64,000 nt of DNA from the NCBI GenBank assembly GCA_017656255.1, contig JACDOE010000010.1:36400-100399 (forward strand). Reading direction: 5' to 3'. Source of the DNA: Bacillaceae bacterium (lineage in GTDB: Bacteria > Bacillota > Bacilli > JACDOE01). The translations under genes were made by a program, and so were the position numbers. Under the pieces are notes generated by a model, which saw only the letters and a list, made by a program, of their open reading frames with translations, made no database searches and was not told the origin of the DNA. Numbering within the stretch: position 1 is the stretch's first letter; the number at the start of each line of letters is the position of its first letter. Below, piece after piece: positions 3,534 to 19,618 of this stretch.

Positions 3534-3544
3534 TGTTTACTCTG

Positions 3545-3920
3545 TTATTTTCGTTCCGGATGTTTGCGGTAAAATTCATGCAGCAGCTTCATCAAGGCCC
3601 TTTTTTCAATCCGGGAGACATAGGAACGTGAAATCCCCAGCTCTCTGGCAATTTCCCGCTGCGTCTTTTCTTCTCCCGATTCAAGCCCGAACCGGCCGAT
3701 GATCACCTCCTTTTCTCTTTTATCCAGCACGTGAATGTTTTTGTAGATCTTGCTTCGTTCGATTTTGAATTCCACTTTGTCGATGACTTCGTTGGCGTCT
3801 GTTCCGAGGATATCCATCAGGCTGATTTCGTTACCTTCTTTGTCGGTGCCGATTGGATCGTGGAGGGAAACGTCTTTGCGGGTTTTTTTGAGGGAGCGCA
3901 GGTGCATGAGGATTTCATTT
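3545..3920 (-). pseudogene. sigK: sigK 3' fragment (codons 122-245 plus stop); direct repeat of 8150-8525
   Basis: 376 bp that match the 3' part of the intact sigK except for one base (3551 t versus 8156 g, a synonymous Arg codon). Homology stops abruptly at 3920|3921. There is no upstream sigK sequence. Confidence 0.9.
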
Positions 3921-3941
3921 CTAAAGTCAATATTTGAGCTA

Positions 3942-3965
3942 TAAATTTGTTATATGAATGTTTAT
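3942..3965. repeat. direct repeat flanking the methyltransferase gene (partner at 4841-4861)
   Basis: 'taaatttgttatatgaatgtttat' versus 'taaatttatatgaatgtttat'. A 15-nt exact core 'tatatgaatgtttat' lies at 3951-3965 and 4847-4861. Confidence 0.6.
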
Positions 3966-4024
3966 TCTCTTTCTTTAAAAAAATCTATAATAAAAACTAT
4001 TATAAGTTTCATATACTCACTAAC

Positions 4025-4801
4025 TTATTTCACTGCCTTCCATATTGTCCATCTATCTTTTTCGACTATATTTTTTTCTATATTAATTGACTTATCTATA
4101 TATTTTATTAGTTTATCCAATTCTTTATCATCTATTTCATATAAAATGCTTCTTCCTGTTCTATTCCTTAAATCTTTAAATAATTCCTCTTTCGTTTCAT
4201 GTACCTTTCTTATTTCCCATAACTTAACTTCTATAACATCTCTGAATCCAACATATTTAAGGGATTCAATAACAGTTTGTCCATTATGACGTCGATCAAT
4301 TTCTTTTTCAATTAGTCTGGGGAAAAGTTTAAAAAAATATCCTCTAATATGAGTTTCGTCCCCTTCTAATAAGCAATCTTCAGGGGTACGGTCTTGAACA
4401 ATATAATATCCATCTTTCTTTAATAATCTATATGCTTCTTTGAAACAAGCATATAAGTCATTAATATGATGTATTAATGCTCTTTCAAGTAATAAATCAA
4501 AACAGTCGCTTTCTAAATCAGTATCAAAAGCATTTCCATACTTAAAAGATATGTTTTTATATTCCTTACAGTTTTCTTCAGCTTCTTTAAGTATAGCTTT
4601 TGAAAAATCAACACCAGTAACGGAAGGTACACCCATATCCGAAAGTGCTTTACAATATATTCCACCACCACAACCGACATCTAAAGCTTTAGAAACATTT
4701 TCGATTGGTACAAGTTTTTTAATTGCTTCTATCCATGATTTGTCTGCCTTTCGTGTTGAATAAGTCTTGCTGTTTTTCTTATTATGAAAATCTATACCCA
4801 T
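4025..4801 (-). CDS. class I SAM-dependent methyltransferase
   Basis: Motif I is 'ALDVGCGGGIYCKAL'. I chose the ATG at 4801 (MGIDFHNKK...) because it sits 7 nt after GAGGAG; the longer ORF reaches 4816. Confidence 0.8.
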   Translation of the reverse strand: MGIDFHNKKNSKTYSTRKADKSWIEAIKKLVPIENVSKALDVGCGGGIYCKALSDMGVPSVTGVDFSKAILKEAEENCKEYKNISFKYGNAFDTDLESDCFDLLLERALIHHINDLYACFKEAYRLLKKDGYYIVQDRTPEDCLLEGDETHIRGYFFKLFPRLIEKEIDRRHNGQTVIESLKYVGFRDVIEVKLWEIRKVHETKEELFKDLRNRTGRSILYEIDDKELDKLIKYIDKSINIEKNIVEKDRWTIWKAVK

Positions 4802-4840
4802 GGTAAATCTCCTCATTCTATTGATTAAACTTTTATAGGG

Positions 4841-4861
4841 TAAATTTATATGAATGTTTAT
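4841..4861. repeat. direct repeat flanking the methyltransferase gene (partner at 3942-3965)
   Basis: See the feature at 3942-3965. Confidence 0.6.
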
Positions 4862-4926
4862 AATTTACCTCTTTAATTTTAAAACATACCACTAATGTTG
4901 CATAAATAGTTACAGAAAATCCAGAT

Positions 4927-5690
4927 TTATATGTTTGCGTGGAAATGGGCTAAAAAGCCAAATGCTAAAGTAAAATGTCCATTTAGAGTTGCAACGATAT
5001 AGATTTTCTTATGGACTACCTCGGATTTCCCATTGAATTTGGCGAACCATTTTTGAAAGGGATTTAATGTTTGTAACCAACGTTTGAAGAAGGGATTGCT
5101 TTGTTCTGTTTCCACGAGTAAACAATTTGTGATTAGGGCGGATTAAAGTCGGTTTTGAACCACCGTTTCCCATTTATACCATAAAAACCCTTTATTCAAA
5201 CATGTTGCTTAAACTATTTGAATAACTTAATTCCCCAACGAAACCAGTAGGTGTTACTAATCTGTTTAGCACTAATATCAAAGCGACTAGTAACGAATAT
5301 CTTTGCCTTGTGAGTCTACCGTTTCCACTAATTGAAATTCATTTTCGGTTCGCTTTACGTAGTTCCGATGACAAAGAGTCTAAGGAAATCGTTTTTATTT
5401 CAGATATAGCAAAGTGCTTGATTGTACAGTTCAACAACGGAATTTTTCTTGAGTCGTGAAGCAAAAGAAAATCCTTTAATAAGAAAAGCGATCAAAAAAC
5501 GTACATAGATTCTTTTTAGTCAATCAAAATCTCATGTTGCTAAAATTTGTTCACACGTTAAGAGTGATGATGACTTTCTCCGTAGATGGTACCGAAATCG
5601 ATAAATGCCAAACTTAAGTATAGTTTTACCCCTGCTTTTGTTTTTTGCGAAAGGATTCTCACTGGTAGTTTGTTAAATACATGTAGAATA
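4927..5690 (-). pseudogene. degenerate IS4-like DDE transposase remnant(s)
   Basis: Minus-strand frames are broken by many stops. They read '...ISNTYWFRWGIKLFK*FKQHV*IKGFYG...' (about 5165-5250) and 'NPFFKRWLQTLNPFQKWFAKFNGKS' (4990-5100). Both resemble the C-terminal Y-2-R-3-E-6-K / 'RWxIExxFKxLKQ' region of IS4-type transposases. Confidence 0.35.
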
Positions 5691-5932
5691 ATACTTGAAT
5701 TAATGATTTATAGATCAACTCATTTACCAAATAACTTGTCACATAGCGTTTTCCTTTCCTTTACTTTAGATTTGGATAGGGATCACCTATACTCTCCATT
5801 GTAAAGGATTTATAACACTTGCAGATCGAACATTCATTGTATTTTTAATACTCTGATTTAATTATTACAATACTAATACATAACAATCTGAATTATAAAT
5901 ATTATTCAAAGATTAACTTTGAAAGGTGCGTT

Positions 5933-7144
5933 TTATTTCATATCCAACTTACTGTTATACTTAATCGAGTCGGGAAGTGGAATATGCTCTACCTTAGGAA
6001 GAGATAAAAGACTTAGTAAACATAAACCCATAAATCCCAAGAATACATAGTGCGTATTCATAATCCCAGCCAAATACCCAGAAAGCAAGGCTGAAGAAAT
6101 CTTAGCAAATGATACCACAATTGACCGGAAACTAATCACGCGGCCCATTAACTCTTTAGGAGTGTTAATCTGAACCAGTGTCTGCATAGAAATCACATGA
6201 AATAGAATGAAGAATCCGAACCCGAACAAAGCAAAAACTGTAAACCAAACGTACCCATCAATTCCCATAAATAAGGAAAATACTACTAAACCAACTAAAG
6301 TTACCACACTAACTTTCTCTTTATATTTATATAATGCTTTTTCCACAACAAATCCACCCAATGATCCACCTAGTGTGAATGAAATGGTTATTATAGAAAA
6401 TAAAACGCTGGAACCTTTCATATCTCGTGCAACCATTGGAGCGAGTAGAGTATTTGTCATTTGATACCCTGCACTACTAATAGTAGCGAGGAAAAACAAG
6501 TATAACATTCCTCTTTTTTCATTTACAAACTTCCAACCAACTTTAATACCTTCAATAACGTCCATACTTTTACTTTGAATATTACGTCTATCTATTCGAC
6601 GAAGCAGTATAAAGAAAATTGATGATACCATAAAGGTTAATGCATTGATTGCAAAACAAATTTCTACTGATAAAATAGACATTACGATTCCTGCTATACC
6701 AGTACCAATCAATGCCATGACAAAATTAATTGAAGATGACTTAGAGATAACATAAACCATTTCTTCATCGCTGAATGATTCTCTAATTAACGTTTGAGAA
6801 GATGGCTTAAATACCAGATGACAAACTGCTAAAACAACTTGAAGAAGATAAAACATAACAATTGATATAGTATCTATAAAAATTAACAGAACAACAATAG
6901 ATACAGCTAACCCACGAATTAACTGAACAGCAACTGTTAACACTTTGGAGTCCTGATGGTCTGTAATTATTCCTACCCATGGTGCGAAAAATAAGGGAGG
7001 TAGGTAATTAATGGCGATTAATATTCCAAGGGACAGGGGACTTCCTGTAAGTTTTAAAACCAACCACATCAACGCTACCGATTGGAAACCATCTCCTAAA
7101 TTATTAATTGCTGAACCTAACAAATAAAAGAACTTATTTCGCAT
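5933..7144 (-). CDS. MFS transporter
   Basis: 403-aa ORF with about 12 hydrophobic helices and an MFS-like N-terminus ('LGDGFQSVALMWLVLKLTGSPLSLG'). GGAAGGG RBS upstream. Confidence 0.8.
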   Translation of the reverse strand: MRNKFFYLLGSAINNLGDGFQSVALMWLVLKLTGSPLSLGILIAINYLPPLFFAPWVGIITDHQDSKVLTVAVQLIRGLAVSIVVLLIFIDTISIVMFYLLQVVLAVCHLVFKPSSQTLIRESFSDEEMVYVISKSSSINFVMALIGTGIAGIVMSILSVEICFAINALTFMVSSIFFILLRRIDRRNIQSKSMDVIEGIKVGWKFVNEKRGMLYLFFLATISSAGYQMTNTLLAPMVARDMKGSSVLFSIITISFTLGGSLGGFVVEKALYKYKEKVSVVTLVGLVVFSLFMGIDGYVWFTVFALFGFGFFILFHVISMQTLVQINTPKELMGRVISFRSIVVSFAKISSALLSGYLAGIMNTHYVFLGFMGLCLLSLLSLPKVEHIPLPDSIKYNSKLDMK

Positions 7145-7308
7145 AGTTGTGCCCTTCCATTTTTTATTTTAACTGGAAAATCATTTTATTTAGAAACATT
7201 AAATCGAGGAGGAATCGAAAAATAACATTCAAAAACACACTCTCTAAAATATATCCTTAAACTGTTGCTATTCGAATTCCTCCTCTGACATTCATGAAGT
7301 GAAGTGTT

Positions 7309-8083
7309 TTATTGTCTTCGTAATGAAAGGTTAGATAACTTAACGAAGCGTTTATATTTAAGAATAGTATCTAATACATCGCAAAGAATTAACATATTAG
7401 ACTCTTCCCCTGGAAAGTCACCCCAACTATCGTCATCGTTGCGAATGCTCATTAACCATTTGAAACCTTTTTCAATAGTGTTATGCCAAGAATAATCATC
7501 AAGGAGTTCACTCGCTAATATTAATGCTCGAATACTGTCACAAGTGTGGTCAACATTCATGTTATCGTAATGTCCTTCAGGATGTTGAGTCTTAACCAAG
7601 TATTGAACTGCTTTCTTAGAAGCTTTAACACCTTTCTTATCATATCCAAGAGTCTTTTGTAATAAGTGTGCTGTAACACAAACTGGTGTTTCATACTTTT
7701 CTTTATATTCCCATTCACCATCCTTACCCTGTCTTTCTATAATAAACTCCATAGCTTTGTTGTAAGGTTCTTCTACCATGTTTCTAATACGTTGTGGTAT
7801 ATCTGGAAGCATTCTAGCGAACATCAATGTACCGGCGCTTACACTAACAGCATCATAGAGTCCCCACTTATCATCCCACAAAGTCCCATCCTCTTTTTGT
7901 TGAGTGATTAACCAGGATAACCCATTATAAATTGCATTATCAAATCGCTCATTCCTCTGAGACAATGCATTATTAGCACGTAGAAGCATTTGTGTAGAAA
8001 ACGCAGTTTTTCTTACATGGCTTTTAATTTCCTTAGTGGTATTTCCCCAGCCACCATCCTCATGTGGGATAGAGCCCCATCTG
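7309..8083 (-). pseudogene. 5'-truncated prenyltransferase / squalene-hopene-cyclase-repeat (alpha-alpha toroid) protein
   Basis: Repeated 'DG.W' motifs are present ('HEDGGWGN', 'QKEDGTLWDDKWG', 'RQGKDGEWEY', 'TQHPEGHYDN', 'RNDDDSWGDF'). The frame stays open up to 8083 with no start codon until 7989, so the N-terminus appears to be missing at the segment boundary. Confidence 0.55.
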
Positions 8084-8149
8084 AATTAACAGGGTCTGGG
8101 GTTTACACAGAAAAATTGACAGACCCTCCCCTTATTTTGACGTGTGCTT

Positions 8150-8525
8150 TTATTTGCGTTCCGGATGTTTGCGGTAAAATTCATGCAGCAGCTTCATCAA
8201 GGCCCTTTTTTCAATCCGGGAGACATAGGAACGTGAAATCCCCAGCTCTCTGGCAATTTCCCGCTGCGTCTTTTCTTCTCCCGATTCAAGCCCGAACCGG
8301 CCGATGATCACCTCCTTTTCTCTTTTATCCAGCACGTGAATGTTTTTGTAGATCTTGCTTCGTTCGATTTTGAATTCCACTTTGTCGATGACTTCGTTGG
8401 CGTCTGTTCCGAGGATATCCATCAGGCTGATTTCGTTACCTTCTTTGTCGGTGCCGATTGGATCGTGGAGGGAAACGTCTTTGCGGGTTTTTTTGAGGGA
8501 GCGCAGGTGCATGAGGATTTCATTT
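8150..8525. repeat. 376-bp direct repeat (partner at 3545-3920)
   Basis: Offset is exactly 4605 bp. I found one mismatch. Confidence 0.9.
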
Positions 8526-8887
8526 TCAATACATCTTGCTGCGTATGTGGCCAATTTGGTCCCTTTGTTTACCTTGTAACTTTCGATGGCCTTGATCAGC
8601 CCGATGGTGCCGATGGAGATCAAGTCTTCGCTGTCTTCGCCGGTGTTTTCAAATTTCTTGACGATATGCGCCACCAGGCGAAGGTTATGCTCGATCAGCA
8701 TATTCCGTGCCTCAACATCTCCCTGTTCCATCAAGCGTAAGTATTTCTCCTCGTCTTCTTCCGACAGTGGCTGGGGAAAGGCATTGTTCTTGACGTAGGA
8801 GACGAACAGAATCAGTTCTTTGTACAGAAGCGCCAGTAACCCGAGCAGTCCAGACACCCGATCCCACCTCCAGGAATAGTGCTTCAT
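8150..8887 (-). CDS. sigK: RNA polymerase sporulation sigma factor SigK (pro-sigma-K), intact copy
   Basis: 245 aa with a pro-sequence plus '[20 protein letters not shown]', '[37 protein letters not shown]' and '[24 protein letters not shown]'. Co-linear with B. subtilis SigK over its whole length. Confidence 0.93.
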
Positions 8888-8925
8888 TTATGCCTATTCC
8901 CTTCTGGGCTTGTTTGTGTCTGTAC
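8656..8925. repeat. 270-bp direct repeat (partner at 15292-15561)
   Basis: Offset is exactly 6636 bp. I found four mismatches: three are synonymous codon changes and one lies in the 5' UTR. The repeat covers codons 1-77 plus 38 bp upstream of the ATG. Confidence 0.9.
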
Positions 8926-9010
8926 TAAAAAAACTGTAATCAGTTTTATTTGCTTTTTTAAATTCTTTAAGTAAGTATCATATAACACCATAACAGACAG
9001 TAAAAGACAA

Positions 9011-9034
9011 GATCCCGGTTTGAATACCGAGATC
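9011..9034 (-). terminator. terminator after the last gene of the segment-B operon
   Basis: The minus strand reads 'GATCTCGGTattcaaACCGGGATCttgtctttt', starting 28 nt downstream of the stop at 9062. Confidence 0.55.
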
Positions 9035-9061
9035 ATCACAGTAACTTAATACATCTCTAAT

Positions 9062-9562
9062 TTAATTAACCTTCTGATCATAAAACGCAATGGCCTCATC
9101 TATTAATTTTTCAAGATGTGGTTTAAGTTCAATTGCTTTTGATTTAGCTTTGTGTGTGTCATAGCCTAAATCAATTAAAAATGCATATGTACTAACCATT
9201 TCCAAAAACTGAGAACTTTCCTTGACCATAGAATTCAAAAGATCAGTATTAATTTTTAAAGAGTATCCTCCATCAGCTTCTAAAGTTTCTTTAAATGCTT
9301 TCCCCTTCTTAGTAATAGAGTACACATAAGCTTCATCGTTTTTTGATTCAGTTAGAAATCCTTGTTGTACTAAAGTATTTATCTCTTCTTGAAGTTCTGC
9401 AGAATATGGGCCATAAAAGTGGTATTCATACTTAAATGGTAAATCTAATCCGGCTGATTCAAGCAAATGCACCATCTTTTGTACCTTTTTTCGACCGTGT
9501 ACCTTTTTAATTTCATCAAACAGACTCAATAAACTGTAGGCTCCTTCGAACAATTCAATCAC
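9062..9562 (-). CDS. YwgA / SocA(Panacea, DUF4065)-like protein
   Basis: 166 aa. 'KVQKMVHLLESAG...YHFYGPYSAELQEEINTLVQQGFL' resembles the YwgA-type partner of YwfO-type HD proteins. It overlaps the upstream HD gene by 4 nt. Confidence 0.55.
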   Translation of the reverse strand: MIELFEGAYSLLSLFDEIKKVHGRKKVQKMVHLLESAGLDLPFKYEYHFYGPYSAELQEEINTLVQQGFLTESKNDEAYVYSITKKGKAFKETLEADGGYSLKINTDLLNSMVKESSQFLEMVSTYAFLIDLGYDTHKAKSKAIELKPHLEKLIDEAIAFYDQKVN

Positions 9563-10869
9563 CCTCCAAAAATTTCATTTTTATAATCTTCGGGCATAAA
9601 GTATCTATCTATAGAGATTTTTTTATTTCTAATTCCATTAATTATATCAGAGATCACTGATAATTCTGTACCATTTCCGTTATTATCAAATAAAATTATT
9701 TGCTCTGAAGCTTCACGTTCGCCTTCTTTTTCATCCGTTTTGGGCGTATGAAAAATATAGGGATCTTTGTATGAACTACTTTTAGCTTCGTCCATTAGAA
9801 AGTAGTACTTAATTGGAATGCCTTTTTTGTTTGAATATTCGAATACCTCCTGCCAAAACTCCATAGGACTTTTGTCTGGAATGGAAACTGACTTAAAAAA
9901 CTTTCTTCTTAATAGTCGAGTACAAAGATCGCTCAATATCGAATCTTGGTGTCTACTCCATATCGAAATAAAATACCAAATCGTATTATCTGTTAAATTA
10001 ATATAATTATGTAGTGTTTCTTTAAGGTTGCCTTTTTCTGATAAAATCCGAATCAAATCTTCAGGAAATTCAATCTCCTGTTTTTCTTGAAAAATCTCAT
10101 AAGCTCTATTAAATATTTTATCTACTAGTAGTTCAGCGCTCCGAGTTGTTTTGTGAAAATACACATTCATATACATATAGTACCTTGCCATAACAAAATC
10201 TTCGGCTATACTAATACCTTTTTCAAGATCTAACCCTACCTCAATTTGACCATTATATTCACCGATTCTCAATACATTTATCATCCATTCAAGATCGAAT
10301 GAACCGTAGCCTGCACCAGTCATTTTAGAGTCTCTTAATAAATAATCAATTCTATCTGTATCTAACTGACTTGATAACAATTTCACAAGAGCTTTGGATC
10401 TATGAGTTCGTTGAATAACATCAGCAACTTCATCTGGGTCCACATTGTACTTTTTGAGAACGCTATTGATTTCTGTATCCCCACGTATTATTTCTATTGT
10501 CCACTTTTCATGTCTAACGCCAGTTGTTTTTTCTAAAGCATGGGAAAAAGGGCCATGCCCAATATCATGTAGGAGTGCTGCAGTTAATGCTAACATTCTA
10601 TTATCAGCTAGCTCTTGAGAATATTGTTTGTATTGTTCATCCTTTAAGCTACATATCTTATTAATAAATCTTTTAGTTAAATGTGTCACACCAATAGAAT
10701 GAGCAAACCGAGTATGTTCGGCTCCTGGATATGTAAATGACGATAATCCAAGTTGTTTTATATGGCGTAGTCTTTGAAATTCTTGGGTATCTATTAATTC
10801 CAAAAGCAAAGCATCTGATTCTTTATCAAAATGAATAATATTATGTACGGGATCACGAATAGTTTTCAC
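9559..10869 (-). CDS. HD-domain dNTP triphosphohydrolase-like protein (SAMHD1 / EF1143 / YwfO family)
   Basis: 436 aa with 'IRDPVHNIIHF', 'FQRLRHIKQLGLSSFTYPGAEHTRFAHSIGV', 'LLHDIGHGPFSH' and 'DTDRIDYLLRDS'. These are hallmark motifs of the family. Confidence 0.8.
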   Translation of the reverse strand: MKTIRDPVHNIIHFDKESDALLLELIDTQEFQRLRHIKQLGLSSFTYPGAEHTRFAHSIGVTHLTKRFINKICSLKDEQYKQYSQELADNRMLALTAALLHDIGHGPFSHALEKTTGVRHEKWTIEIIRGDTEINSVLKKYNVDPDEVADVIQRTHRSKALVKLLSSQLDTDRIDYLLRDSKMTGAGYGSFDLEWMINVLRIGEYNGQIEVGLDLEKGISIAEDFVMARYYMYMNVYFHKTTRSAELLVDKIFNRAYEIFQEKQEIEFPEDLIRILSEKGNLKETLHNYINLTDNTIWYFISIWSRHQDSILSDLCTRLLRRKFFKSVSIPDKSPMEFWQEVFEYSNKKGIPIKYYFLMDEAKSSSYKDPYIFHTPKTDEKEGEREASEQIILFDNNGNGTELSVISDIINGIRNKKISIDRYFMPEDYKNEIFGG

Positions 10870-10917
10870 ATTATCACCCCATTATAAAACTCTTTAATTA
10901 TTATCTAACTCGACAAA

Positions 10918-11556
10918 CTAGAATGCATTGTGTTTTCCCATTTGTCTCAGTACTTCTAATCTATCTAAACAACTTGTACATAATAAGCAATGTCGATCCC
11001 CTAAAGCATTACAAGAAAAGGTTTTTTCTATTGGTACTGACATGTTAATTGCCTCATCAATTACAATCTGTCTGTCTAAACCCACAAATGGAGTGATCAA
11101 TTCAAATTCATGAAGTGATTCTGAAAGAGTAGTAGATATGCTCTCTATAAATGACTTACTTGTATCCTTATAAGATCTTGACCCAGTCACACCTATTGCT
11201 ATTTTTCGTATATCGTTTTTATACGCATATGCTCCAGCCAAAGATATTAAAATCATATTTCTGTTCGGAAAAAACTCGGTATTAAACCATTCTTCTGCTG
11301 AATATCCTGATTGAGGACTATCCCCCACAAGTGATCCAGAGCCAAGGTGCTTCATATTAGAAATGTCTAAAAATAAGACTTTATCCGCATACTCATTTCC
11401 TATTATTGATTTAATTGCTCTAATTTCGCCAGACACTGTTACTTGCCCATAGTTAATATGAATAGGGAATATATCGTATTTTCTTTTTCGCAACCAATAA
11501 TAAAGAACAACAGAATCAATGCCCCCTGATAATAATAATACGACTTTTTTTCTCAT
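10918..11556 (-). CDS. QueC-like PP-loop ATPase (7-cyano-7-deazaguanine synthase family, divergent)
   Basis: 212 aa with the 'LLLSGGIDS' PP-loop, 'INYGQ', 'FFPNRNMILISLAG' and a C-terminal Cys cluster 'SCNALGDRHCLLCTSCLDR'. Co-linear with QueC. Its start overlaps the upstream stop (ATGA). Confidence 0.75.
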   Translation of the reverse strand: MRKKVVLLLSGGIDSVVLYYWLRKRKYDIFPIHINYGQVTVSGEIRAIKSIIGNEYADKVLFLDISNMKHLGSGSLVGDSPQSGYSAEEWFNTEFFPNRNMILISLAGAYAYKNDIRKIAIGVTGSRSYKDTSKSFIESISTTLSESLHEFELITPFVGLDRQIVIDEAINMSVPIEKTFSCNALGDRHCLLCTSCLDRLEVLRQMGKHNAF

Positions 11557-12818
11557 AATATATACAACTTCTCTATTAATTCTTCAATAGATTCAACTAT
11601 AACATTACAACCATAAACTAGCATATTATTTAATTCAAACTGTGAGGTTTTTAAAGCAATTATAGGGATACCTCTTTCATAAGCAAACCCAACTTCAAAA
11701 CATGTACCCGGATCATTATGATCTAACAATGCTACCACAACATCAGATTGTCTTATCAAGTCAAGATCTTTATCAAAAATATTTTTGCGTTCATCCATTG
11801 GTGTGTCTTTCTTTATAATTCCATTTTCTCGTAGAGGTGATAAAACTTTAAATCCACAATTTTCTATTCTATTCGTTATTAATTTAACCCAATCCTCTTC
11901 CTGTTTACTAAAAAATGGACCTGCCAAGTAAACGCTTTTGTCTGAATTACCAGATACAACAATTTCTCTTCTGTCCATATCTTCTTCTACCGCTACTCTA
12001 TTTATTATATTTTCAATTGTAAAATTCTCAATGAAGTTAGCAGCAACACAACTTGCTAACCTCGTACTATACTCAATATCCCTCGTCCTGAGAAATGTAG
12101 CAGCTAATGCACCACCAAAAACATCACCAGAGCCTAAAGTGCATTTAACATTACTTTTATACGCCGGTATATGTATAGTCTTTCCTTCGTTTACTAGAAT
12201 ACAACCTTTATATCCTCTTTTTACGATTATGTACTTAGGCCCCATATGAATTAACTTTTCAATAGCATTCTCTAAAGTATTTGCTTGAGTTAATAATAAA
12301 ACCTCTTCCTCATTTACTAAAAGTACAGATACATATTCTAAAATTTTTCTAGCATCATGAATTGATTTGCTATTTGGTTTTGGGTCAAGAAAAACAGGAA
12401 TATTTTTTTCACATGCTTGCTTACATAAATCTTCCGGAAGCGAGTGATCCACTGGAAATACTAAGATACCCTCACATTCATCACTTAGCTGTGGATTATA
12501 TTCAATACCGATTTTAACATCTATCAAAGGAGTACTTTTTTTAACTTCATAAGCTTTATAACCTTTTACTAAATATTTTGGCAGACAATAATTTTCCATA
12601 TATTTAGCACTCGAAAAACTTACACCCATTAAGTTCCATATTTTTATACTATATGAATCGATTTCGGGCCCGTATACTGTCATAAACTCAACATTGATGC
12701 CTTGTTTTGCTGCAGATATTGATGCATATAAACCGGCTCCCCCAAATCTATCGATAATCTTTGTATCATAATCTAATAATAAGTCAATACCTATCTCTCC
12801 GTATACAGCAATATTCAT
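11553..12818 (-). CDS. fusion protein: PfkB-family sugar/nucleoside kinase + nucleoside 2-deoxyribosyltransferase-like domain
   Basis: The N-terminal part has 'GGAGLYASISAAKQG' and 'TLGSGDVFGGALAA' (PfkB signatures). The C-terminal part has 'VYLAGPFFS' and 'DPGTCFEVGFAYERGIPIIAL' (NDT/DNPH1-type motifs). I chose the start at 12818 (MNIAVYG...) because it sits 5 nt after GTGAGGTGA. Confidence 0.75.
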   Translation of the reverse strand: MNIAVYGEIGIDLLLDYDTKIIDRFGGAGLYASISAAKQGINVEFMTVYGPEIDSYSIKIWNLMGVSFSSAKYMENYCLPKYLVKGYKAYEVKKSTPLIDVKIGIEYNPQLSDECEGILVFPVDHSLPEDLCKQACEKNIPVFLDPKPNSKSIHDARKILEYVSVLLVNEEEVLLLTQANTLENAIEKLIHMGPKYIIVKRGYKGCILVNEGKTIHIPAYKSNVKCTLGSGDVFGGALAATFLRTRDIEYSTRLASCVAANFIENFTIENIINRVAVEEDMDRREIVVSGNSDKSVYLAGPFFSKQEEDWVKLITNRIENCGFKVLSPLRENGIIKKDTPMDERKNIFDKDLDLIRQSDVVVALLDHNDPGTCFEVGFAYERGIPIIALKTSQFELNNMLVYGCNVIVESIEELIEKLYIL

Positions 12819-12823
12819 CGGTA

Positions 12824-13534
12824 TCACCTCACGAATTGAAAGTATCCGTTTCTCCCTAATATCCATAATAAATAGTCCATCTTACCTAAAGGCACTCCAA
12901 TCTTCAAGCAAATAATTCGTAATGCTTCTTCATATTGTAAGTAAACCTTTTCTGTTATGTTTTTAGGAATATTATATCCTAAGTAACCAAGAAATCTTAG
13001 TATATGGATATCCAGTACTGCACAATCATTATTAAATCCTGTATTCCTTAATAGCCAACTAGCTGATTTCATGCCAATACCTGGACATTCACATAGCCAT
13101 GTTCTAGCATCAAATGAATTAAGTTCATTAAGTTTATCAAATAATCTCCAGTGACAGTTCTCCCAAAGCCAATATCCAGCCTTGGATATAACCTTAGGCT
13201 TCGTTTCCACAAATCTATATTTTCTGAACTGGCCGTTACAAGTAATGGGATAAAACTGCTTTTTTGATAACTCTCTCTTTATTACATTTTCAATTATATA
13301 TAAGTTAGATATAGAGGAATAATATTTTGCTTCGATTAACCCTTTATTCTTTAATACATGTAAACCTGATTTGTTTAACTCATAACTGATTCCAAATCCT
13401 CCAAGAACTACGAAAAAAAATTCATCTATAACTTGTTCATTAGATTTTGAAACAAACGAAAACTCTCTTTCAATTGCAATACCATAAGTTTCCCAAAGTT
13501 CTTTTAACACATTGAATGCTCTAGTATTTTCCAT
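12824..13534 (-). CDS. Ogg2/AGOG-like HhH-GPD DNA glycosylase (N-glycosylase/DNA lyase type)
   Basis: 236 aa. 'CPGIGMKSASWLLRNTGFNNDCAVLDIHILRFL' shows a helix-hairpin-helix with the Lys and downstream Asp arrangement of bifunctional Ogg2-type enzymes. Confidence 0.65.
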   Translation of the reverse strand: MENTRAFNVLKELWETYGIAIEREFSFVSKSNEQVIDEFFFVVLGGFGISYELNKSGLHVLKNKGLIEAKYYSSISNLYIIENVIKRELSKKQFYPITCNGQFRKYRFVETKPKVISKAGYWLWENCHWRLFDKLNELNSFDARTWLCECPGIGMKSASWLLRNTGFNNDCAVLDIHILRFLGYLGYNIPKNITEKVYLQYEEALRIICLKIGVPLGKMDYLLWILGRNGYFQFVR

Positions 13535-13540
13535 ATCACT

Positions 13541-13891
13541 TTACGCCTCTACCTCTACTGTAACCTTCGGGTCATGTTGATTCCCTTCTTTTTTTATTAC
13601 AACCCCCTTGTATTCCCACCCTTCTTCAATACATTTTAAGAGCCAACTGTATTTTGGAGGAACGACCCCTATACTAAAATTATCTTTTTCTTTTTTTACT
13701 TCCATGACCGGCAATGTATCATCATTTCTTAAGATAATAGACACTTCATCATTCACAGAAACATTTCTCCACACTGCTTTTTGATTCTCATTAACAATTA
13801 ATAAAATTGTAACTTTTTCACCGCATCTATTTACTGTTTTTCCAGTTCCTCCTCCAAAACCACCAAATGATGAAAAGCCACCACTTCCCAT
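13541..13891 (-). CDS. small protein with Gly/Phe/Ser-rich N-terminus and beta-rich body (possibly HIRAN-like); first gene of the operon
   Basis: 116 aa beginning 'MGSGGFSSFGGFGGGTGK'. Strong AAGGAGGA RBS. Its stop lies 6 nt before the next start. No family was recognised with confidence. Confidence 0.55.
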   Translation of the reverse strand: MGSGGFSSFGGFGGGTGKTVNRCGEKVTILLIVNENQKAVWRNVSVNDEVSIILRNDDTLPVMEVKKEKDNFSIGVVPPKYSWLLKCIEEGWEYKGVVIKKEGNQHDPKVTVEVEA

Positions 13892-14024
13892 ATAAATCCT
13901 CCTTACTAGTTATTTTTTTTTTTGCAATCTTTATAATACTCCAAAACTATTTATATTTAAATTAAATGAAATCTCATTTTGATCACTTCTTTTGTAAATT
14001 GTCTAATGTGCTTAGAATATGTTA

Positions 14025-14860
14025 TTATTTCTCTAGACCAAATTCTCTTTTTAATTTATTAAAGTCATATTCTTTTATTTCGATTGGGATACTAAGGTTC
14101 TTAAGTTTTGACATCAAATCGCTTTTATTAACAACAGGTTTGTCCTCGTAAACAATTGCGAATATCAATTTAAAATTATTTATTGAAGCACTGTCTAAAT
14201 TTTTAGCTGTCTGATATAACGATTCAATAACATTACGAGTTAACTTACCTCGTTTATTATATTTTATCTCAAATCCATAAGTTGAATTATCAGTTTTACT
14301 AATACCATCAATTTCAATTAACTTATCAGAAGATTTAAATGCCATGTGTCTCTGAATAGGAATTTTAAATTCTTGTTCAAGTTTCCTAAACACCAAATCT
14401 TCAGCTAAAAAGTATTGCATTTTGGGATCAACAGTCACTTTGGAAGGCATGTCTAACGTACCCGCTTTATCCTCTTCAATATTATTATCACTAGAAGATT
14501 CTTCAAGCTCTGCTTCTGCTTTCTTTCTTTGTGAATCACTAGTTAATTTTAAGAAATTCCCTTCATCCTTAAAATCACTTGGCGCATATAATTTGGTATG
14601 ATAAAAATCACAAGTCTATAAAATGTAAATAAAACAAGTAAAGGGAAAATTACTATGAAACACACAAGGAACCATTTTTGAGAAACATTTAATTCCGAAC
14701 TAAATTGAAGTACTAATGCTGCTATTCCATAAATTAGTGATATAAATAATGCAATGATACCTAAGGGGTTCTTTGTAAAACCTGATGCACTTCTCGTGAA
14801 TTCTATTATTATCGCTCACCTTCCTTGTAAAAATTTTAAAATGATGCCAACGTTACTCAT
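14025..14860 (-). pseudogene. disrupted membrane-anchored PD-(D/E)xK-like protein
   Basis: The ATG at 14860 begins 'MSNVGIILKFLQGR'. An in-frame TGA follows at 14816-14818. Two hydrophobic helices come next, then a frame change at a T-run near 14600-14610. After that the frame runs into the 141-aa ORF 14025-14450, which has 'IEIDGIS...YGFEIKY'. Confidence 0.5.
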
Positions 14861-15283
14861 TCTTAATACCAATCCAAATCATATCCGTGGACAAAAATGG
14901 CTGGAAAATATAAAACATGTCTGAGTATCAAAAAATTAATCTTTTAATATAACATTCTTCTCTTTTTTCTCATTAACTCCTCCTAGCTTTTGTGCACACC
15001 AATATATTAAAAAACAATCTTCAAAACTATACTTACTCCTTTTAGATCAAAGATCAAAAAATCCCTAACAAAAAAATTAGTGTTTATTCTCAATTGTATT
15101 TCGGTAAAAAAACAGATAATCCCTTTTAGGACAAATAAAAAATAATTAGTAAGGATATCACTCTATACTATATACTTATCTGAATTAATAGGTTTAATTG
15201 GTTTTATAATTATCTTCTTTTAGCTATTTGAAACCCCCCCTGACCCAGCACCACACCAGCATTCTTCCGACATCGCTTCGTGT

Positions 15284-15523
15284 TCACAACCTCTTGACGA
15301 TATGCGCCACCAGGCGAAGGTTATGTTCGATCAGCATATTTCGCGCCTCAACATCTCCCTGTTCCATCAAGCGTAAGTATTTCTCCTCGTCTTCTTCCGA
15401 CAGTGGCTGGGGAAAGGCATTGTTCTTGACGTAGGAGACGAACAGAATCAGTTCTTTGTACAGAAGCGCCAGTAACCCGAGCAGTCCAGACACCCGATCC
15501 CACCTCCAGGAATAGTGCTTCAT
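15284..15523 (-). pseudogene. sigK: sigK 5' fragment (codons 1-77, then 'RL' and a stop)
   Basis: The 79-aa ORF matches intact SigK through '...[10 protein letters not shown]'. Homology ends at 15292. Confidence 0.9.
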
Positions 15524-15561
15524 TTATGCCTATTCCCTTTTGGGCTTGTTTGTGTCTGTAC
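15292..15561. repeat. 270-bp direct repeat (partner at 8656-8925)
   Basis: See the feature at 8656-8925. Confidence 0.9.
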
Positions 15562-15742: not shown

Positions 15743-18346
15743 TTATAACCTCGGGTCAATTTCTTTCTCTTTACTTACTTCAAATAGCATGTTAGCAACC
15801 ACCTGTTTATATTTATGATCTGACTCATTTATTTTATCTAAATGAAAGGCCAACATCTCTTTCCCAAGTTTGAATTCATTGATAGAGGTTTTTAGTTTCT
15901 TTGAAATATTTTTTTGCTTTAAAAGCTTGGCATATTTGTGTGGAAAGCGATAATCATATCCATAAACAATGGTTAAATAATCTGGATTGCGAACTTTCAT
16001 ATAAGGGGCAGTATCATCTGCCAATTTTTCAGGTTTAATCACGACACCTTCCATTTTTCTTTCTGTTGTCAAAGTCTTAAAAAAGGTTAAAGCTTTTTCA
16101 TAATAATCCTGTTCGTTTAAATCGATCAACATAAATTCATCATCAGATACAAACTTAAAAATTTCCGATGTTGATTCTGCAGGGATGATCTCTTCTCCAT
16201 TTTCCTTGACCATTTTTAAAATATTAAATGGTTTATAGTTAATCTCATCATCCTTTGCATAGAGCTCGATTTGTTCATGATATTTTTGATGGGCTTCCAC
16301 ATGTTTTTCTATTGGTTCATATGACTTTAACATAGTTTGCAACGCCTTATAAGTCTGGTAAGTGGCACCGCCAAACTTTTTAATCAAATCTTTCTTAGAC
16401 ATTGTTTGCTGATCGACTTCATAGTCACTTGATTTATATTGCTCAACAAGTTTTTGAAAGTGGGCATCAAAGCCTTGCTCCTTTAAAAAATCCAACTCTG
16501 TTTGTAAAGCTCTGTCTATAGTCCTAAATTGCTTTTCAATCAATTCCTCTCCCAAAATAGACCAGGGCAGTAATTCACCATCAAACACGATTGTTTTTAT
16601 TTTATTCTCTTTCATGTAATCCGAAAATTTATTTAACAGATTATCATATACCGGAGACAAATCCACTTTCTTAATTTTAAATCCATTTCGACTCACTGCA
16701 TAACATTGATCTAGTTCCCTTGCTAAGTAAATGTTACATCTTGACCCCATGTACTTCGGTTGCAAAACCACTTTATGGACGCCTTTTCTCTTAAAATACA
16801 ACAACCCCTGTTTTAAAGATTCCAATTCATTGCTATCCAAATCTTTGTCAGCCGGCGACATGGTACCAGAAATATAATTAATCTTATTTTTCAAGACATA
16901 ATTAAGGCGCTTTTGGTCCTGTTCATGTAAATCCTCGATGTTAACATGTTTATCTCTTTGTTTAAATAAAGTAGGTAAAGGTTCGTTCCAGTATTTACTA
17001 GTGCTTGTAATTCGCTGCTGTTTAAAAAACGGTCTCCAGGAGTCAATCACAACAGAAGAAAGAACATTTCCATTGGCAGCTCCCGTATCAATGTTAATCT
17101 TATTTTTAATTTGGACTATTTCTTTTACAGCAACATGTCCAAAAATATGATACGGATGATTTCCAACACTCTCTGACTCCAGAAAGTGCAATTGCTCCTC
17201 GTAGGGTTTTTCTCGATCAAGAACAAAGCTTCTTTGCTTTTTCAGAGACGTTTTATCTAACTTCCCTATATATTTGTTTTGACACGGAGCATGTGTCACA
17301 TAAAAGGAAGGCTTTTGTAATCCAATATACCTGTAGAATTCTTTCGAAGATTCAACGAGTCGGAAAAATTTGTGTTTTAAATCCTCATCCTTTTCAAAGA
17401 TTTCTATAGAGTCAAAGTAGTTGTCTAGTAAACTTGAATCTACTGAATTCTTATCAATTTCACCTTTCAAGTATTTGTAAACAAAATTCTCATGATTTCC
17501 TTTTACAAGCACAAAATGATCCATATTTTGTTCAATAAATTCTACCGTCTCTTTGGTAGCATTTCCTTTGTCAATCCAGTCTCCGTTAAGAATAATTTTA
17601 TATTCATCCGTTTTTTCAGTGGATAAAATACGATTATTTTCAATATTAAACCCATAGCTGATAAGCAGCTTTTTTAAATCAGCCACTTTTTCATGAACAT
17701 CTCCAACAATTATATATTTGTGTTCCTGCGGCAAAATATGACTGAGATAATGATCTAAATCCTCTATCATAATTTTATAATTTGCATTCGGTTCATTGGT
17801 ATCAGGGTTATAGAAATCCCGCTCCCTAATTTTGTGTATTCGACGAAATTTTGACTTTGAAATTTGTTTCAGAACCTCTCTTTTGAGACGAGTGACATGA
17901 TTTGAAATTAATCGTCTTGAACCACCTGAAGCATAGAAATCTTCTCTATTTTTAAAATCAAAAAGTATAGCTTCCAGGTTATATTGCTTTTCTTTAGCAA
18001 TTTCCATGATTTGCTCACGGAATTCTTCTGAAAGGCCAATTGTATCAACAATGACGAACTCGGCGTTAATTGGAAATGACGTAACGGCTTTTAGTTTCTC
18101 AAATAAAATATGAAAGGCTTGTTCGCTGCTTTCCATCATAATTCTGTCATGTTTGTCATATTCATGTCCCAAAATATCCTGCCTGATTTCATCAGAGGAA
18201 ATATATTGAACATTGGTTTTAAAGCCCCGATCCTTATCCTGAATAGAAAGTTGAGGCAACAATATTTCTTTAGCAAATGTTGATTTACCGGAATTAGTAG
18301 CACCAATTAACATAAATATGGTATGCATATTTGTTTTTAATTCCAT
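15743..18346 (-). CDS. pnkp: bacterial polynucleotide kinase-phosphatase (Pnkp): kinase + metallophosphoesterase + ligase/adenylyltransferase domains
   Basis: 867 aa. Contains an N-terminal P-loop 'IGATNSGKSTFA', central 'IIVGDVHE...GDWIDKG...GNHE' phosphoesterase motifs, and a C-terminal 'QPKYMGSRCNIY' ligase-like lysine motif. Confidence 0.85.
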   Translation of the reverse strand: MELKTNMHTIFMLIGATNSGKSTFAKEILLPQLSIQDKDRGFKTNVQYISSDEIRQDILGHEYDKHDRIMMESSEQAFHILFEKLKAVTSFPINAEFVIVDTIGLSEEFREQIMEIAKEKQYNLEAILFDFKNREDFYASGGSRRLISNHVTRLKREVLKQISKSKFRRIHKIRERDFYNPDTNEPNANYKIMIEDLDHYLSHILPQEHKYIIVGDVHEKVADLKKLLISYGFNIENNRILSTEKTDEYKIILNGDWIDKGNATKETVEFIEQNMDHFVLVKGNHENFVYKYLKGEIDKNSVDSSLLDNYFDSIEIFEKDEDLKHKFFRLVESSKEFYRYIGLQKPSFYVTHAPCQNKYIGKLDKTSLKKQRSFVLDREKPYEEQLHFLESESVGNHPYHIFGHVAVKEIVQIKNKINIDTGAANGNVLSSVVIDSWRPFFKQQRITSTSKYWNEPLPTLFKQRDKHVNIEDLHEQDQKRLNYVLKNKINYISGTMSPADKDLDSNELESLKQGLLYFKRKGVHKVVLQPKYMGSRCNIYLARELDQCYAVSRNGFKIKKVDLSPVYDNLLNKFSDYMKENKIKTIVFDGELLPWSILGEELIEKQFRTIDRALQTELDFLKEQGFDAHFQKLVEQYKSSDYEVDQQTMSKKDLIKKFGGATYQTYKALQTMLKSYEPIEKHVEAHQKYHEQIELYAKDDEINYKPFNILKMVKENGEEIIPAESTSEIFKFVSDDEFMLIDLNEQDYYEKALTFFKTLTTERKMEGVVIKPEKLADDTAPYMKVRNPDYLTIVYGYDYRFPHKYAKLLKQKNISKKLKTSINEFKLGKEMLAFHLDKINESDHKYKQVVANMLFEVSKEKEIDPRL

Positions 18347-19618
18347 TTACTTTTCACCTCTTGCTTTAACCAAAACTCCCTGAGTGGTATAAACCCCGTC
18401 TACACAATCGCCAATACTTAAATGATGAATCTCAAAATCTCGTTCATCAAAAATCTCACTTATCCATTGTTTAAATTCATTTGTCCCCATTTCCCATTTA
18501 TGATCTTCATGCCGATATTCATCCAGGGAATAATACTTATTAAAATCATGATTTGGAGTCGTTATAATAATGGATTCAAAATGAATGTCATCAAGAATTG
18601 TTAAAATTAGTTTTTTAGCCTCATCCTTCTCCATGTGTTCAATGACTTCTGTAAGGATGACATCAACTAATTCCCCATTGTAATCTTCAATAAAATCCTC
18701 AATGGATCCATAAGTTAATATATTTTCAATACCCCTTTTTTTAATTCTTGCATCCAGCGAACGAATGATATCTTCATCAATGTCAATGGCATAATAGTAT
18801 TTGTCACCTATACTTTCGGAGAAAAGAAAGGCATAATAACCTTCCCCACATCCAACATCAACAATTGGTTTGTTGAAGGGTAATAACTTTTTTATCGCTT
18901 CTCTTCTTTGGTGAGCTGTATGTCCGTAAGAAAAGTTTATGTCATACCTTTGTGTTTCTTCCAGGCTTTCTTTAAATTTTGAAAATAATTTCCTGCTGGT
19001 AAGTATGTTTCGTGCAAACAGATACCTTATAAAAAACGGAGCATCCAGGACTTTAATTTGATTAACATACTTTTCAATCAAACTATCTGTAACATCAAGG
19101 TATTCGTTACCTATTAAAGATAAAAATAAAAACAATAGATTAGCTGTATTCAATAAATCATAAATACTTTTGTTCGTTTTGATTTTAATTGAATAGCTCT
19201 TGTGAGATTGATGAATCATTTCGATAGAGAAATCCTCAAAATGTTTGCTAAAAAAATCTATATATCTTGGTAGTGTGATATGAACCATATTCACAAATAA
19301 TTCATTTTCATATCCTTCAAGATCATTATCATACCGGTTTTTGATTGTGGAATTAAAGAATTCTGTCATTGCGTTTAATGGAAAAAGAGGTGTATTATAT
19401 CTTGAAACATTTAGATATTCAAAGCTTTCTTCTTTATGTTGCTTGTAAGATATCTCGTTGTCAGCGTCCTTAAAATATATATTGTAGGTTTGATCATCAG
19501 AATACCAGCCAAACGCAATTCCCTGTCTGACTGTACGCAACATCATGCCTGAAGCTGGATTTTTGCGTATTAAAAAAGAAAAGTGCGGATTCGTTGATTT
19601 TAACTGAACAATAGCCAT
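18347..19618 (-). CDS. hen1: Hen1 3'-terminal RNA ribose 2'-O-methyltransferase
   Basis: 423 aa. The N-terminal 'FSFLIRKNPASGMMLRTVRQGIAFGWY' is Hen1-type, and the C-terminal SAM motif is 'IVDVGCGEGYY'. The stop codon abuts the pnkp start codon. Confidence 0.8.
   Translation of the reverse strand: MAIVQLKSTNPHFSFLIRKNPASGMMLRTVRQGIAFGWYSDDQTYNIYFKDADNEISYKQHKEESFEYLNVSRYNTPLFPLNAMTEFFNSTIKNRYDNDLEGYENELFVNMVHITLPRYIDFFSKHFEDFSIEMIHQSHKSYSIKIKTNKSIYDLLNTANLLFLFLSLIGNEYLDVTDSLIEKYVNQIKVLDAPFFIRYLFARNILTSRKLFSKFKESLEETQRYDINFSYGHTAHQRREAIKKLLPFNKPIVDVGCGEGYYAFLFSESIGDKYYYAIDIDEDIIRSLDARIKKRGIENILTYGSIEDFIEDYNGELVDVILTEVIEHMEKDEAKKLILTILDDIHFESIIITTPNHDFNKYYSLDEYRHEDHKWEMGTNEFKQWISEIFDERDFEIHHLSIGDCVDGVYTTQGVLVKARGEK

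Follow-up and report, generated by a model that had tools for sequence, protein, structure and literature searches.

Why would a PfkB-type sugar kinase be joined to a nucleoside 2'-deoxyribosyltransferase (NDT) in a single polypeptide, and on which substrates would such a protein act? The question is raised by a minus-strand gene in a 64,000-nucleotide stretch of a Bacillaceae bacterium genome (contig JACDOE010000010.1, positions 36,400 to 100,399), which we refer to as the window and number from its first letter. An earlier note on this DNA had described the gene as a kinase fused to an NDT/DNPH1-like domain and had sketched two routes for it, one acting on free nucleosides and one phosphorylating a released sugar, both of which are possible. 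We found that the fusion is almost certainly a genuine bifunctional enzyme and very probably an obligate part of a mobile defense-island cassette. Tentatively, we read this cassette as a third QueC-family system for conjugation to a protein N terminus, a reading for which we infer all of the chemical steps as well as the antiviral role.

The PfkB-NDT fusion

The fusion gene and its two domains are laid out as follows.

11553..12818, minus strand: PfkB-NDT fusion gene, 421 aa, stop codon at 11553-11555 (ORF list; Pfam PF00294 and PF05014)
11964..12818, minus strand: ribokinase/PfkB kinase domain, residues 1-285 (Foldseek; column counts over 81 homologues)
11556..11939, minus strand: nucleoside 2'-deoxyribosyltransferase domain, residues 294-421 (Pfam; alignment to 7M5H, 6EVS and 7O62)

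In the list of open reading frames (ORFs), the minus-strand frame extends from 11553 to 12866 (437 aa), with an upstream ATG at 12866 and position 12818 as an internal Met17. Homologues are 421 to 430 aa long, their alignments begin at the ATG at 12818, and a Shine-Dalgarno sequence (GAGGTGA) lies 5 nt upstream of this codon. Because these lines of evidence agree, we take ATG 12818 as the true start, in keeping with the gene bounds of the earlier note.

Both domains score well above their Pfam cutoffs (PF00294, E = 6.9e-24, 85 bits versus a cutoff of 25.8; PF05014, E = 2.4e-21, 76.5 bits versus a gathering cutoff of 28.8), the related model PF15891 (Nuc_deoxyri_tr2) also matches (E = 2.4e-15), and all four motifs that the note had quoted are present in the translation. 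An AlphaFold2 (AF2) model built on 81 homologues has a mean predicted local distance difference test (pLDDT) score of 92.7 and a predicted template modeling (TM) score (pTM) of 0.88. A large protein database contains 64 close full-length homologues, from Bacillota at 47 to 100% identity, and a distant clade from Proteobacteria and others that retains the same two Pfam domains at 21 to 30% identity; in species-representative genomes, more than 352 fusion loci were confirmed. The domains, the model and these homologues all bear out a kinase and an NDT in one polypeptide. A frameshift that artificially joins two genes, which the note had raised as a concern, is excluded, since over 80 independent sequences, as well as the copies on 37 plasmids (19 of them conjugative), keep the two domains fused. 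The fusion is a member of an existing, uncharacterized family, whose architecture is already in databases and has been noticed before. Its association with other genes appears in the searchable literature only in passing, as purine salvage or repair, so that the note's description of the architecture as uncharacterized still holds.

The kinase half adopts a complete ribokinase fold over residues 1-285 of the model (Foldseek E = 8e-21, target-normalized TM score of 0.73 to 0.80 over ~300 columns), and its structural matches are ribokinases, sulfofructose kinase, pseudouridine kinase and nucleoside kinases. The Pfam PfkB match spans only profile positions 149-290, the C-terminal half, the N-terminal half being too divergent for the model; the truncated kinase at which this partial coverage hints is ruled out by the match to the full fold. 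Residue conservation was counted over 81 aligned fusion homologues, down to 21% identity. In the NxxE motif, N169 is conserved in 80/81 and E172 in 81/81, and the GSGD motif (229-232), D145 and P146 are each present in 81/81; an acidic residue in β-strand 1 (D/E12) is found in 79/81, and G27 is also conserved. The catalytic Asp232 is encoded at 12123-12125. The kinase therefore shares its complete fold, NxxE and GxGD with ribokinase/PfkB kinases but differs from them in its divergent N-terminal half and in falling below every NCBIfam equivalog cutoff (ribokinase, 76 bits versus 300; nucleoside kinase, 44 versus 450). Since no such cutoff is approached, its substrate is not any characterized one.

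The C-terminal half carries the features of an NDT, namely, YLAGPFF (Y297), S327-P328, D351, D366, D369-x-G-T-x-F-E375 and C404. Y297, D351, D369 and E375, which we take to be the counterparts of Y7, D72, D92 and E98 of Lactobacillus leichmannii NDT, are conserved in 81/81 homologues, and S327-P328 and G371 are also invariant; the nucleophile Glu375 is encoded at 11694-11696. Solved NDTs were matched with their motifs aligned residue by residue (7M5H, 4e-9; 6EVS, 1e-8; 7O62, 8e-6), whereas matches to DNPH1/Rcl were marginal (E-values of 0.02 to 1). The "NDT/DNPH1-like" assignment of the note thus stands in its first part, as profile searches confirm an NDT at the C terminus, and fails in its second: a DNPH1-type hydrolase is unsupported both by these E-values (0.02 or weaker versus 4e-9) and by YLAGPFF, which reads as in NDTs. 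YLAGPFF is the NDT-type N-terminal motif, unlike the phosphate-binding motif of DNPH1; it suggests an unphosphorylated sugar and therefore accounts for the need for a kinase. The fold, YxAGPxF, the Asp and the DxGTxxExG motif with its nucleophile Glu are shared with PF05014 NDTs such as 7M5H and 6EVS. The differences are that this NDT is always fused to PfkB, lies within a QueC cassette, and has a clade-specific insertion and the invariant Cys404. The kinase fold is complete in the AF2 model, and the alignments show the active sites of both halves to be intact.

Standalone NDT domains akin to this half, without a kinase, also occur in archaeal metagenome-assembled genomes (MAGs), at L064:1370-1834 and L072:8488-8940 (L numbers denote loci), and in three phages (PQ819873.1, OK896991.1 and MW073017.1, of Streptococcus, Geobacillus and Vibrio).

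A conserved cassette around the fusion

To define the genetic context of the fusion, ORFs were predicted in the window, in 6 loci taken from contig look-ups and in 80 taken from a genome scan (87 in all), and the window proteins served as seeds for iterated profile searches that located partners across these loci. The earlier note had proposed examining the contexts of PF00294 and PF05014 fusions, and the fusion proved to be the center of a conserved cassette of three to five genes in these loci. Its partners are a small protein (80 loci), a QueC-like protein (80), an OGG-like protein (65), an HD protein (20) and a 166-aa protein (6). The order of small protein, fusion and QueC-like protein is essentially fixed (~80/87 loci), with the QueC-like gene directly downstream of the fusion in 80/87. 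The OGG-like gene has no single place. In Bacillota it separates the small-protein gene from the fusion; its other placements are upstream, or downstream in the opposite orientation. The core partners in the window are as follows.

13541..13891, minus strand: small partner protein, 116 aa, with N-terminal MGSGG, a Gly/Ser tail, a HIRAN-like α/β domain and invariant C23 and C87
12824..13534, minus strand: Ogg2-type 8-oxoguanine-glycosylase/AP-lyase-like protein, 236 aa, with Lys156 (GIGMK) and Asp175 (AVLD)
10918..11556, minus strand: QueC-family (Cap9-like) ATP-dependent ligase, 212 aa, with SGGxDS (S10-S15), a Y129/D131 base-binding pair and Cys 182, 190, 193 and 196

On the minus strand, the window genes read as the 116-aa protein, Ogg-HhH protein, fusion, QueC-like protein, HD protein and 166-aa winged-helix-like protein, followed by a terminator-like hairpin. 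These genes abut or overlap, the start of the QueC-like gene overlapping the fusion stop by 4 nt, and an independently annotated plasmid copy has the same gene string. Three loci (L048, L075 and L076) contain two small-protein/fusion(/QueC) units within ~10 kb, a hint that the cassette has been tandemly duplicated or has diversified.

The small protein begins with a disordered, Gly/Ser-rich tail (residues 1-22, 13826-13891; AF2 pLDDT below 50 for residues 1-18). Across homologues, the extreme end reads M[S/G]G[S/G]G (M1, 100%; S/G2, 97%; G3, 98%), Gly makes up 41% and Ser 21% of the stretch that ends at the first Cys (median position 19), and for nearly all of ~1,450 clusters the profile starts with residue 1. 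The protein has no Pfam family, and a word-indexed homology search with it alone returned only itself; its relatives came from the profile built on the loci. Two methods gave a HIRAN-like fold (AF2 model pLDDT of 72; Foldseek E of ~0.02), and the remainder of the protein is presumably a DNA-end-binding module.

The QueC-like protein matches QueC models in both Pfam (1.7e-37) and PADLOC (1.2e-32). Its nearest solved structure is Cap9 (9NTO, 1.7e-11), just ahead of BsQueC (3BL5, 2.8e-10); SYKDT aligns with PYYDC of Cap9, which places Y129/D131 on Cap9 Y115/D117. In the 80 loci with this gene, SGGxDS, the base-recognizing Asp (80/80) and the four Cys of the Zn site are invariant, and the stacking residue is His in 70, Tyr in 8 and Phe in 2, with Tyr marking the Bacillota clade. 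The OGG-like protein matches Pfam Ogg-HhH (4.4e-21) and PDB entry 9O00 (8.9e-15), and K156 (Schiff base) and D175, invariant in 63/63 sequences, line up with residues that were mutated in 9O02 and 9O01. Its NCBIfam match (PRK01229, 1.2e-25) scores 90, below the equivalog cutoff of 183, and it does not match the PADLOC OGG model.

The genomic setting of these genes is that of mobile defense islands. The window cassette lies in a stretch of 32% GC within a genome of ~49% GC. In other genomes, neighbors of the fusion include Wadjet-like, TerB/BrxC, SLFN-type helicase, McrB, type II CBASS, Gabija and dGTPase genes, the last as anti-phage dGTPases that adjoin the cassette in Yersinia and Citrobacter. 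A PADLOC scan of 152 large flanking ORFs from 80 loci (E ≤ 1e-10), which gives tallies by family and no per-gene background rate, matched mad3, MkoA, restriction-modification types I, II and III, Upx, SngA, TIR and PN effectors, IetA, PtuA and PDC candidates, along with TnsB transposases. A phage-encoded DNA modification module is ruled out, because the full fusion was found in 0 of 50,697 phage records, where only standalone NDT domains occur. A known defense system is ruled out as well: PADLOC models cover neither the fusion nor the OGG-like and small proteins, and the defining genes of type IV CBASS, QatABCD and Dpd are absent from the cassette.

Among the flanking ORFs of the 80 genome loci, one matches PADLOC OGG (Cap11-type, 1.4e-82) and another is DpdA/TGT-like (2.9e-127), so at least one genome may carry a type IV CBASS-like or Dpd-like 7-deazaguanine system beside the cassette.

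The remaining cassette features are accessory or lie at its edges.

9559..10869, minus strand: accessory HD dNTP triphosphohydrolase, EF1143/SAMHD1-like, 436 aa (Pfam HD and HD_assoc_2)
9062..9562, minus strand: accessory winged-helix-like protein, 166 aa, translationally coupled to the HD gene by a 4-nt overlap
9011..9034, minus strand: terminator-like hairpin directly after the last cassette gene (hairpin scan)
14025..14450, minus strand: 141-aa ORF upstream of the small protein, with no Pfam, PADLOC or NCBIfam match, present in 1/87 loci
L013:11342-12058, L046:11356-12030 and L004:9813-10496; L086:12835-13509: nitroreductase-family and Dam-like methylase genes in non-Bacillota loci

The HD protein matches PDB entry 2O6I over its full length (1e-77), with further matches to SAMHD1. 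EF1143 is a dNTP triphosphohydrolase; the products of an EF1143-like HD protein would therefore be deoxynucleosides, the donor substrate of an NDT. The 166-aa protein resembles the C-terminal, non-macrodomain part of DarG (PADLOC, 7.8e-11; NCBIfam, 1.6e-7) and LmuC (1e-5), with weak matches to Pfam DUF4364/wHTH. The two genes recur together in Bacillota loci and at L021 and L041, and may form an independent two-gene module. Outside Bacillota, a nitroreductase-family protein follows the QueC-like protein in 45 loci, always with OGG present, and 15 loci pair OGG with a Dam-like D12 DNA adenine methylase on the opposite strand; both are absent from the window. The position of the hairpin is suggestive of the operon end but is not proof of it, as the scan gave 3 sites versus 2.3 expected; a promoter scan was uninformative (33 found versus 33.7 expected). 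That the 141-aa ORF belongs to the cassette is doubtful.

Proposed N-terminal conjugation and its alternatives

Two characterized systems provide a framework for interpreting this gene set. Type IV CBASS (an antiphage signaling system based on cyclic oligonucleotides) encodes a module of QueC-like Cap9, TGT-like Cap10 and OGG-like Cap11 that targets the N terminus of the CD-NTase; Cap9 ligates 7-carboxy-7-deazaguanine (CDG) to CD-NTase Gly2 (N-terminal peptide GGSGGSFGSGFDPR), and Cap10 then holds the adduct "poised for transfer" (Wassarman et al., bioRxiv 10.1101/2025.04.06.647259). In QatABCD, QatC is the QueC-family partner of QatB, whose essential MGTS N terminus sits on a disordered tail (Gao, Wassarman & Kranzusch 2026, PMC13279940). 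The N terminus of our small protein resembles those of CdnD (MGGSGGSF...; GGSGGSFGSGF, with NDG on G2) and QatB (MGTS), the two known protein substrates of QueC-family enzymes.

The likeness to type IV CBASS extends to a Cap9-related QueC, an MGGS-like end on the flexible Gly/Ser tail of a partner protein, a base-exchange-family enzyme placed to act on a free N9, an OGG-family member that is frequent but not universal, and a location in defense islands. The differences are also clear. In the window and in the recurrent families of the 87 loci, the cassette has no CD-NTase and no Cap or cyclic-nucleotide effector; it has a kinase-fused NDT rather than a TGT; its presumptive substrate is a HIRAN-like protein of ~110 aa rather than an enzyme; its OGG-like protein misses the PADLOC OGG model; and residue 2 is usually Ser and the stacking residue usually His. 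Similarly, the cassette shares with QatABCD a QueC-family enzyme and a functionally uncharacterized small protein with a long disordered tail and an N-terminal Gly motif. It differs in having neither the QatA ATPase nor the QatD TatD nuclease (window and 87 loci), in its base-binding pocket (Thr/Thr in QatC versus Tyr(His)/Asp here) and in the fold of the small protein (helical in QatB versus HIRAN-like α/β).

By analogy, after removal of Met, the Cap9-like QueC enzyme would activate host CDG with ATP and ligate it to the α-amine of the N-terminal Gly/Ser of the small protein; that the QueC-like protein modifies this N terminus in some way seems to us somewhat better than an even bet. The NDT domain could then move a 2'-deoxyribosyl group from a donor deoxynucleoside onto the free N9 of the tethered base, in the position that TGT-like Cap10 holds in type IV CBASS, and at the window (Bacillota) locus the EF1143-like dNTPase could feed such donors. 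The attachment of 2'-deoxyribose to purine N9 is the defining chemistry of NDTs. The fused PfkB domain would phosphorylate the new sugar, presumably at its 5'-OH; glycosylation of a base followed by phosphorylation of the sugar would explain why NDT and kinase activities are fused. We regard it as possible, if doubtful, that the two domains act on a small-protein adduct. The reverse order, in which a free CDG deoxynucleotide is made first and then ligated to the protein, would yield the same product.

This product would be a DNA-end-binding protein with a nucleotide on a flexible tail, which may act on or be joined to invading DNA, and the Ogg2-like glycosylase/lyase may remove or process the adduct. 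In its most specific form, 7-amido-7-deaza-2'-deoxyguanosine 5'-phosphate would be built in steps, by the QueC-like protein, the NDT and then PfkB, on the N-terminal α-amine of a HIRAN-like protein that binds 3' DNA ends, and the conjugate would be joined to or incorporated in invading DNA as a covalent block, with the Ogg2-like protein reversing or exploiting the adduct; this version is speculative, and we consider it unlikely. Compared with the two routes of the note, the partners shift the balance: with a Cap9-like QueC, a deazaguanylation-type tail and an Ogg2-type glycosylase, a protein-linked 7-deazaguanine is the likelier acceptor base, and the gene belongs to a mobile defense-island cassette rather than to nucleoside metabolism.

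Several observations weigh against N-terminal conjugation by an antiviral cassette. Known NDTs use free bases and nucleosides, and none is known to accept a protein-tethered base. Residue 2 of the small protein is mostly Ser, not Gly, and the prevalence of Ser2 and of a His stacking residue leaves room for a base or a chemistry other than that of Cap9. The HIRAN assignment is one of fold, as no Pfam HIRAN match was found among 99 members of the small-protein family at E ≤ 1, and the small-protein profile gave no PDB sequence match. The HD dNTPase could act as a donor source in only 20/87 loci, and no obvious toxic effector is present in the cassette. Three of the proteins (the fusion and the OGG-like and small proteins) lack a PADLOC model, and the defense role is argued from context, where the enrichment of PADLOC families lacks a background rate.

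The alternative that survives best, though we think it unlikely, is a small-molecule pathway to 7-deazapurine nucleotides, for salvage or for pre-replicative DNA modification. The NDT would put free CDG, preQ0 or 7-amido-7-deazaguanine (ADG), made or amidated by the QueC-like protein, on deoxyribose, and PfkB would yield a deoxynucleoside monophosphate, which would enter DNA by way of cellular kinases and polymerases; the OGG-like protein and Dam-like methylase would police or repair that DNA, and the small protein would be a regulator or DNA-binding accessory. Published reports lean this way. Libby et al. 2026 (PMC13329287) found a PF00294-PF05014 protein in ~89% of QueC "Cluster 4" neighborhoods and read the association as purine salvage, and for an OGG-nitroreductase-QueC-NDT island operon a Stenotrophomonas genome report proposed a part in repair or in the modification of DNA with 7-deazaguanine. 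The "Cluster 4" association is the one seen here, and its majority Cys signature, CH(x)5CxxCxGCxK, fits our non-Bacillota copies, whereas the Bacillota copy in the window has variant Cys spacing and Tyr in place of His; the small protein, its N-terminal motif, OGG and defense islands do not figure in Libby et al. The NDT domain does look like ordinary free-nucleoside NDTs, an EF1143-like dNTPase would supply deoxynucleosides, and the methylase accompanies OGG in 15 loci. However, such a pathway leaves the near-obligate small protein unexplained, with its N-terminal motif on a disordered tail, the hallmark of QueC substrates. Furthermore, QueD/QueE (CDG/preQ0 biosynthesis) are not recurrent in the cassette and TGT/DpdA is not part of it in the 87 loci, and the cassette resides on plasmids and in defense islands, not in DNA-modifying phages.

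Demolition of the nucleotide pool is less probable still. Here, the HD protein would produce deoxynucleosides, the NDT would act as a hydrolase to release base and deoxyribose, and PfkB would be a deoxyribokinase that traps deoxyribose 5-phosphate, starving phage replication, with the QueC-like and small proteins as a sensor or switch; this matches the second route of the note. The HD protein is indeed a full-length EF1143/SAMHD1-like dNTPase, the kinase is structurally nearest to ribokinases, dNTP depletion is an established defense strategy, and anti-phage dGTPases adjoin the cassette in Yersinia and Citrobacter. Those dGTPases, however, are a separate known system, and HD is present in only 20/87 loci. 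In addition, the NDT has the full transferase-type motif set and not that of a DNPH1-type hydrolase, and the role of OGG is left unexplained.

Two further explanations we consider very improbable. The cassette could make a peptide-nucleoside metabolite or signal, with the small protein as its precursor or carrier; the Gly/Ser N terminus of that protein would receive a deazaguanine nucleotide and later be cut off, and the nitroreductase would tailor the product. Amide-linked 7-deazaguanine natural products exist, and the conserved N-terminal tail and the nitroreductase-family enzyme in 45 loci would fit, but no protease or exporter is recurrent in the 87 loci, a leader would not need a conserved HIRAN-like domain, and the context is that of defense islands. 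The NDT-like domain could instead be a toxic N-glycosidase effector that cleaves NAD+ or nucleotides, with PfkB as a ligand-sensing or regulatory module, given that NDT-like effectors are listed among retron effector types (one of them reportedly an NADase); yet the invariant NxxE and GSGD motifs favor catalysis over sensing by the kinase, and the NDT is nearest to genuine transferases.

QueC-family protein deazaguanylation was found only in 2025-26, and the fate of the protein after base attachment is unknown in type IV CBASS and QatABCD. If the cassette does conjugate its small protein in this way, it would be a third QueC-based immune family, spread across bacterial phyla and conjugative plasmids. 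Its product would be a new post-translational modification, a nucleotide built on a protein, and possibly a route to site-specific protein-DNA conjugation. It would also be the first case in which enzymes glycosylate and phosphorylate a nucleobase tethered to a protein, filling the N9 step left open for type IV CBASS. Because the partner chemistries here are textbook ones (base to deoxynucleoside to nucleotide) and the substrate is a 12-kDa protein with a DNA-end-binding-like fold, the downstream step becomes testable. The reading at the level of the system, with a Cap9-like ligase, a HIRAN-like substrate with an MSGSGG tail, an NDT-kinase in place of TGT and an OGG, appears to be new relative to the searchable literature. 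Should the model fail, what is left is a very common uncharacterized island operon that is misannotated as "PfkB family carbohydrate kinase" and "preQ0 synthase."

Genes and repeats around the window cassette

The cassette lies next to an intact gene for the sporulation sigma factor SigK (8150-8887, minus strand; NCBIfam 1e-118), which is bounded by 99%-identical duplicates of its own ends: the 3' 300 nt are found at 3542-3841 and 8147-8446, and the 5' 270 nt plus upstream sequence at 8656-8925 and 15292-15561. Each duplicate bounds a low-GC insert, element A (3842-8146) and element B (8926-15291), the latter carrying the cassette. The arrangement looks like two Campbell-type insertions that spare sigK, unlike the gene-splitting skin element, although the source is a MAG and an assembly artifact is possible. 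No integrase was seen in either element. At the sigK 3' end, element A encodes an S-adenosylmethionine-dependent methyltransferase (4025-4816), a major facilitator superfamily transporter (5933-7144) and a short squalene-cyclase/prenyltransferase-repeat protein (7309-7989), all on the minus strand, and may be a small metabolite or resistance module.

Directly past the duplicated sigK fragment at the far end of element B, still in low-GC sequence, is an RNA repair pair on the minus strand, Pnkp (kinase-phosphatase-ligase, 867 aa; 15743-18346) and Hen1 (423 aa; Hen1_N, 1e-93; 18347-19618), followed by a Spo0M/arrestin-like protein (19774-21105). Just beyond the low-GC region, the minus strand encodes a 676-aa STAND/AAA_16 NTPase with a C-terminal LuxR/GerE helix-turn-helix (23514-25544).

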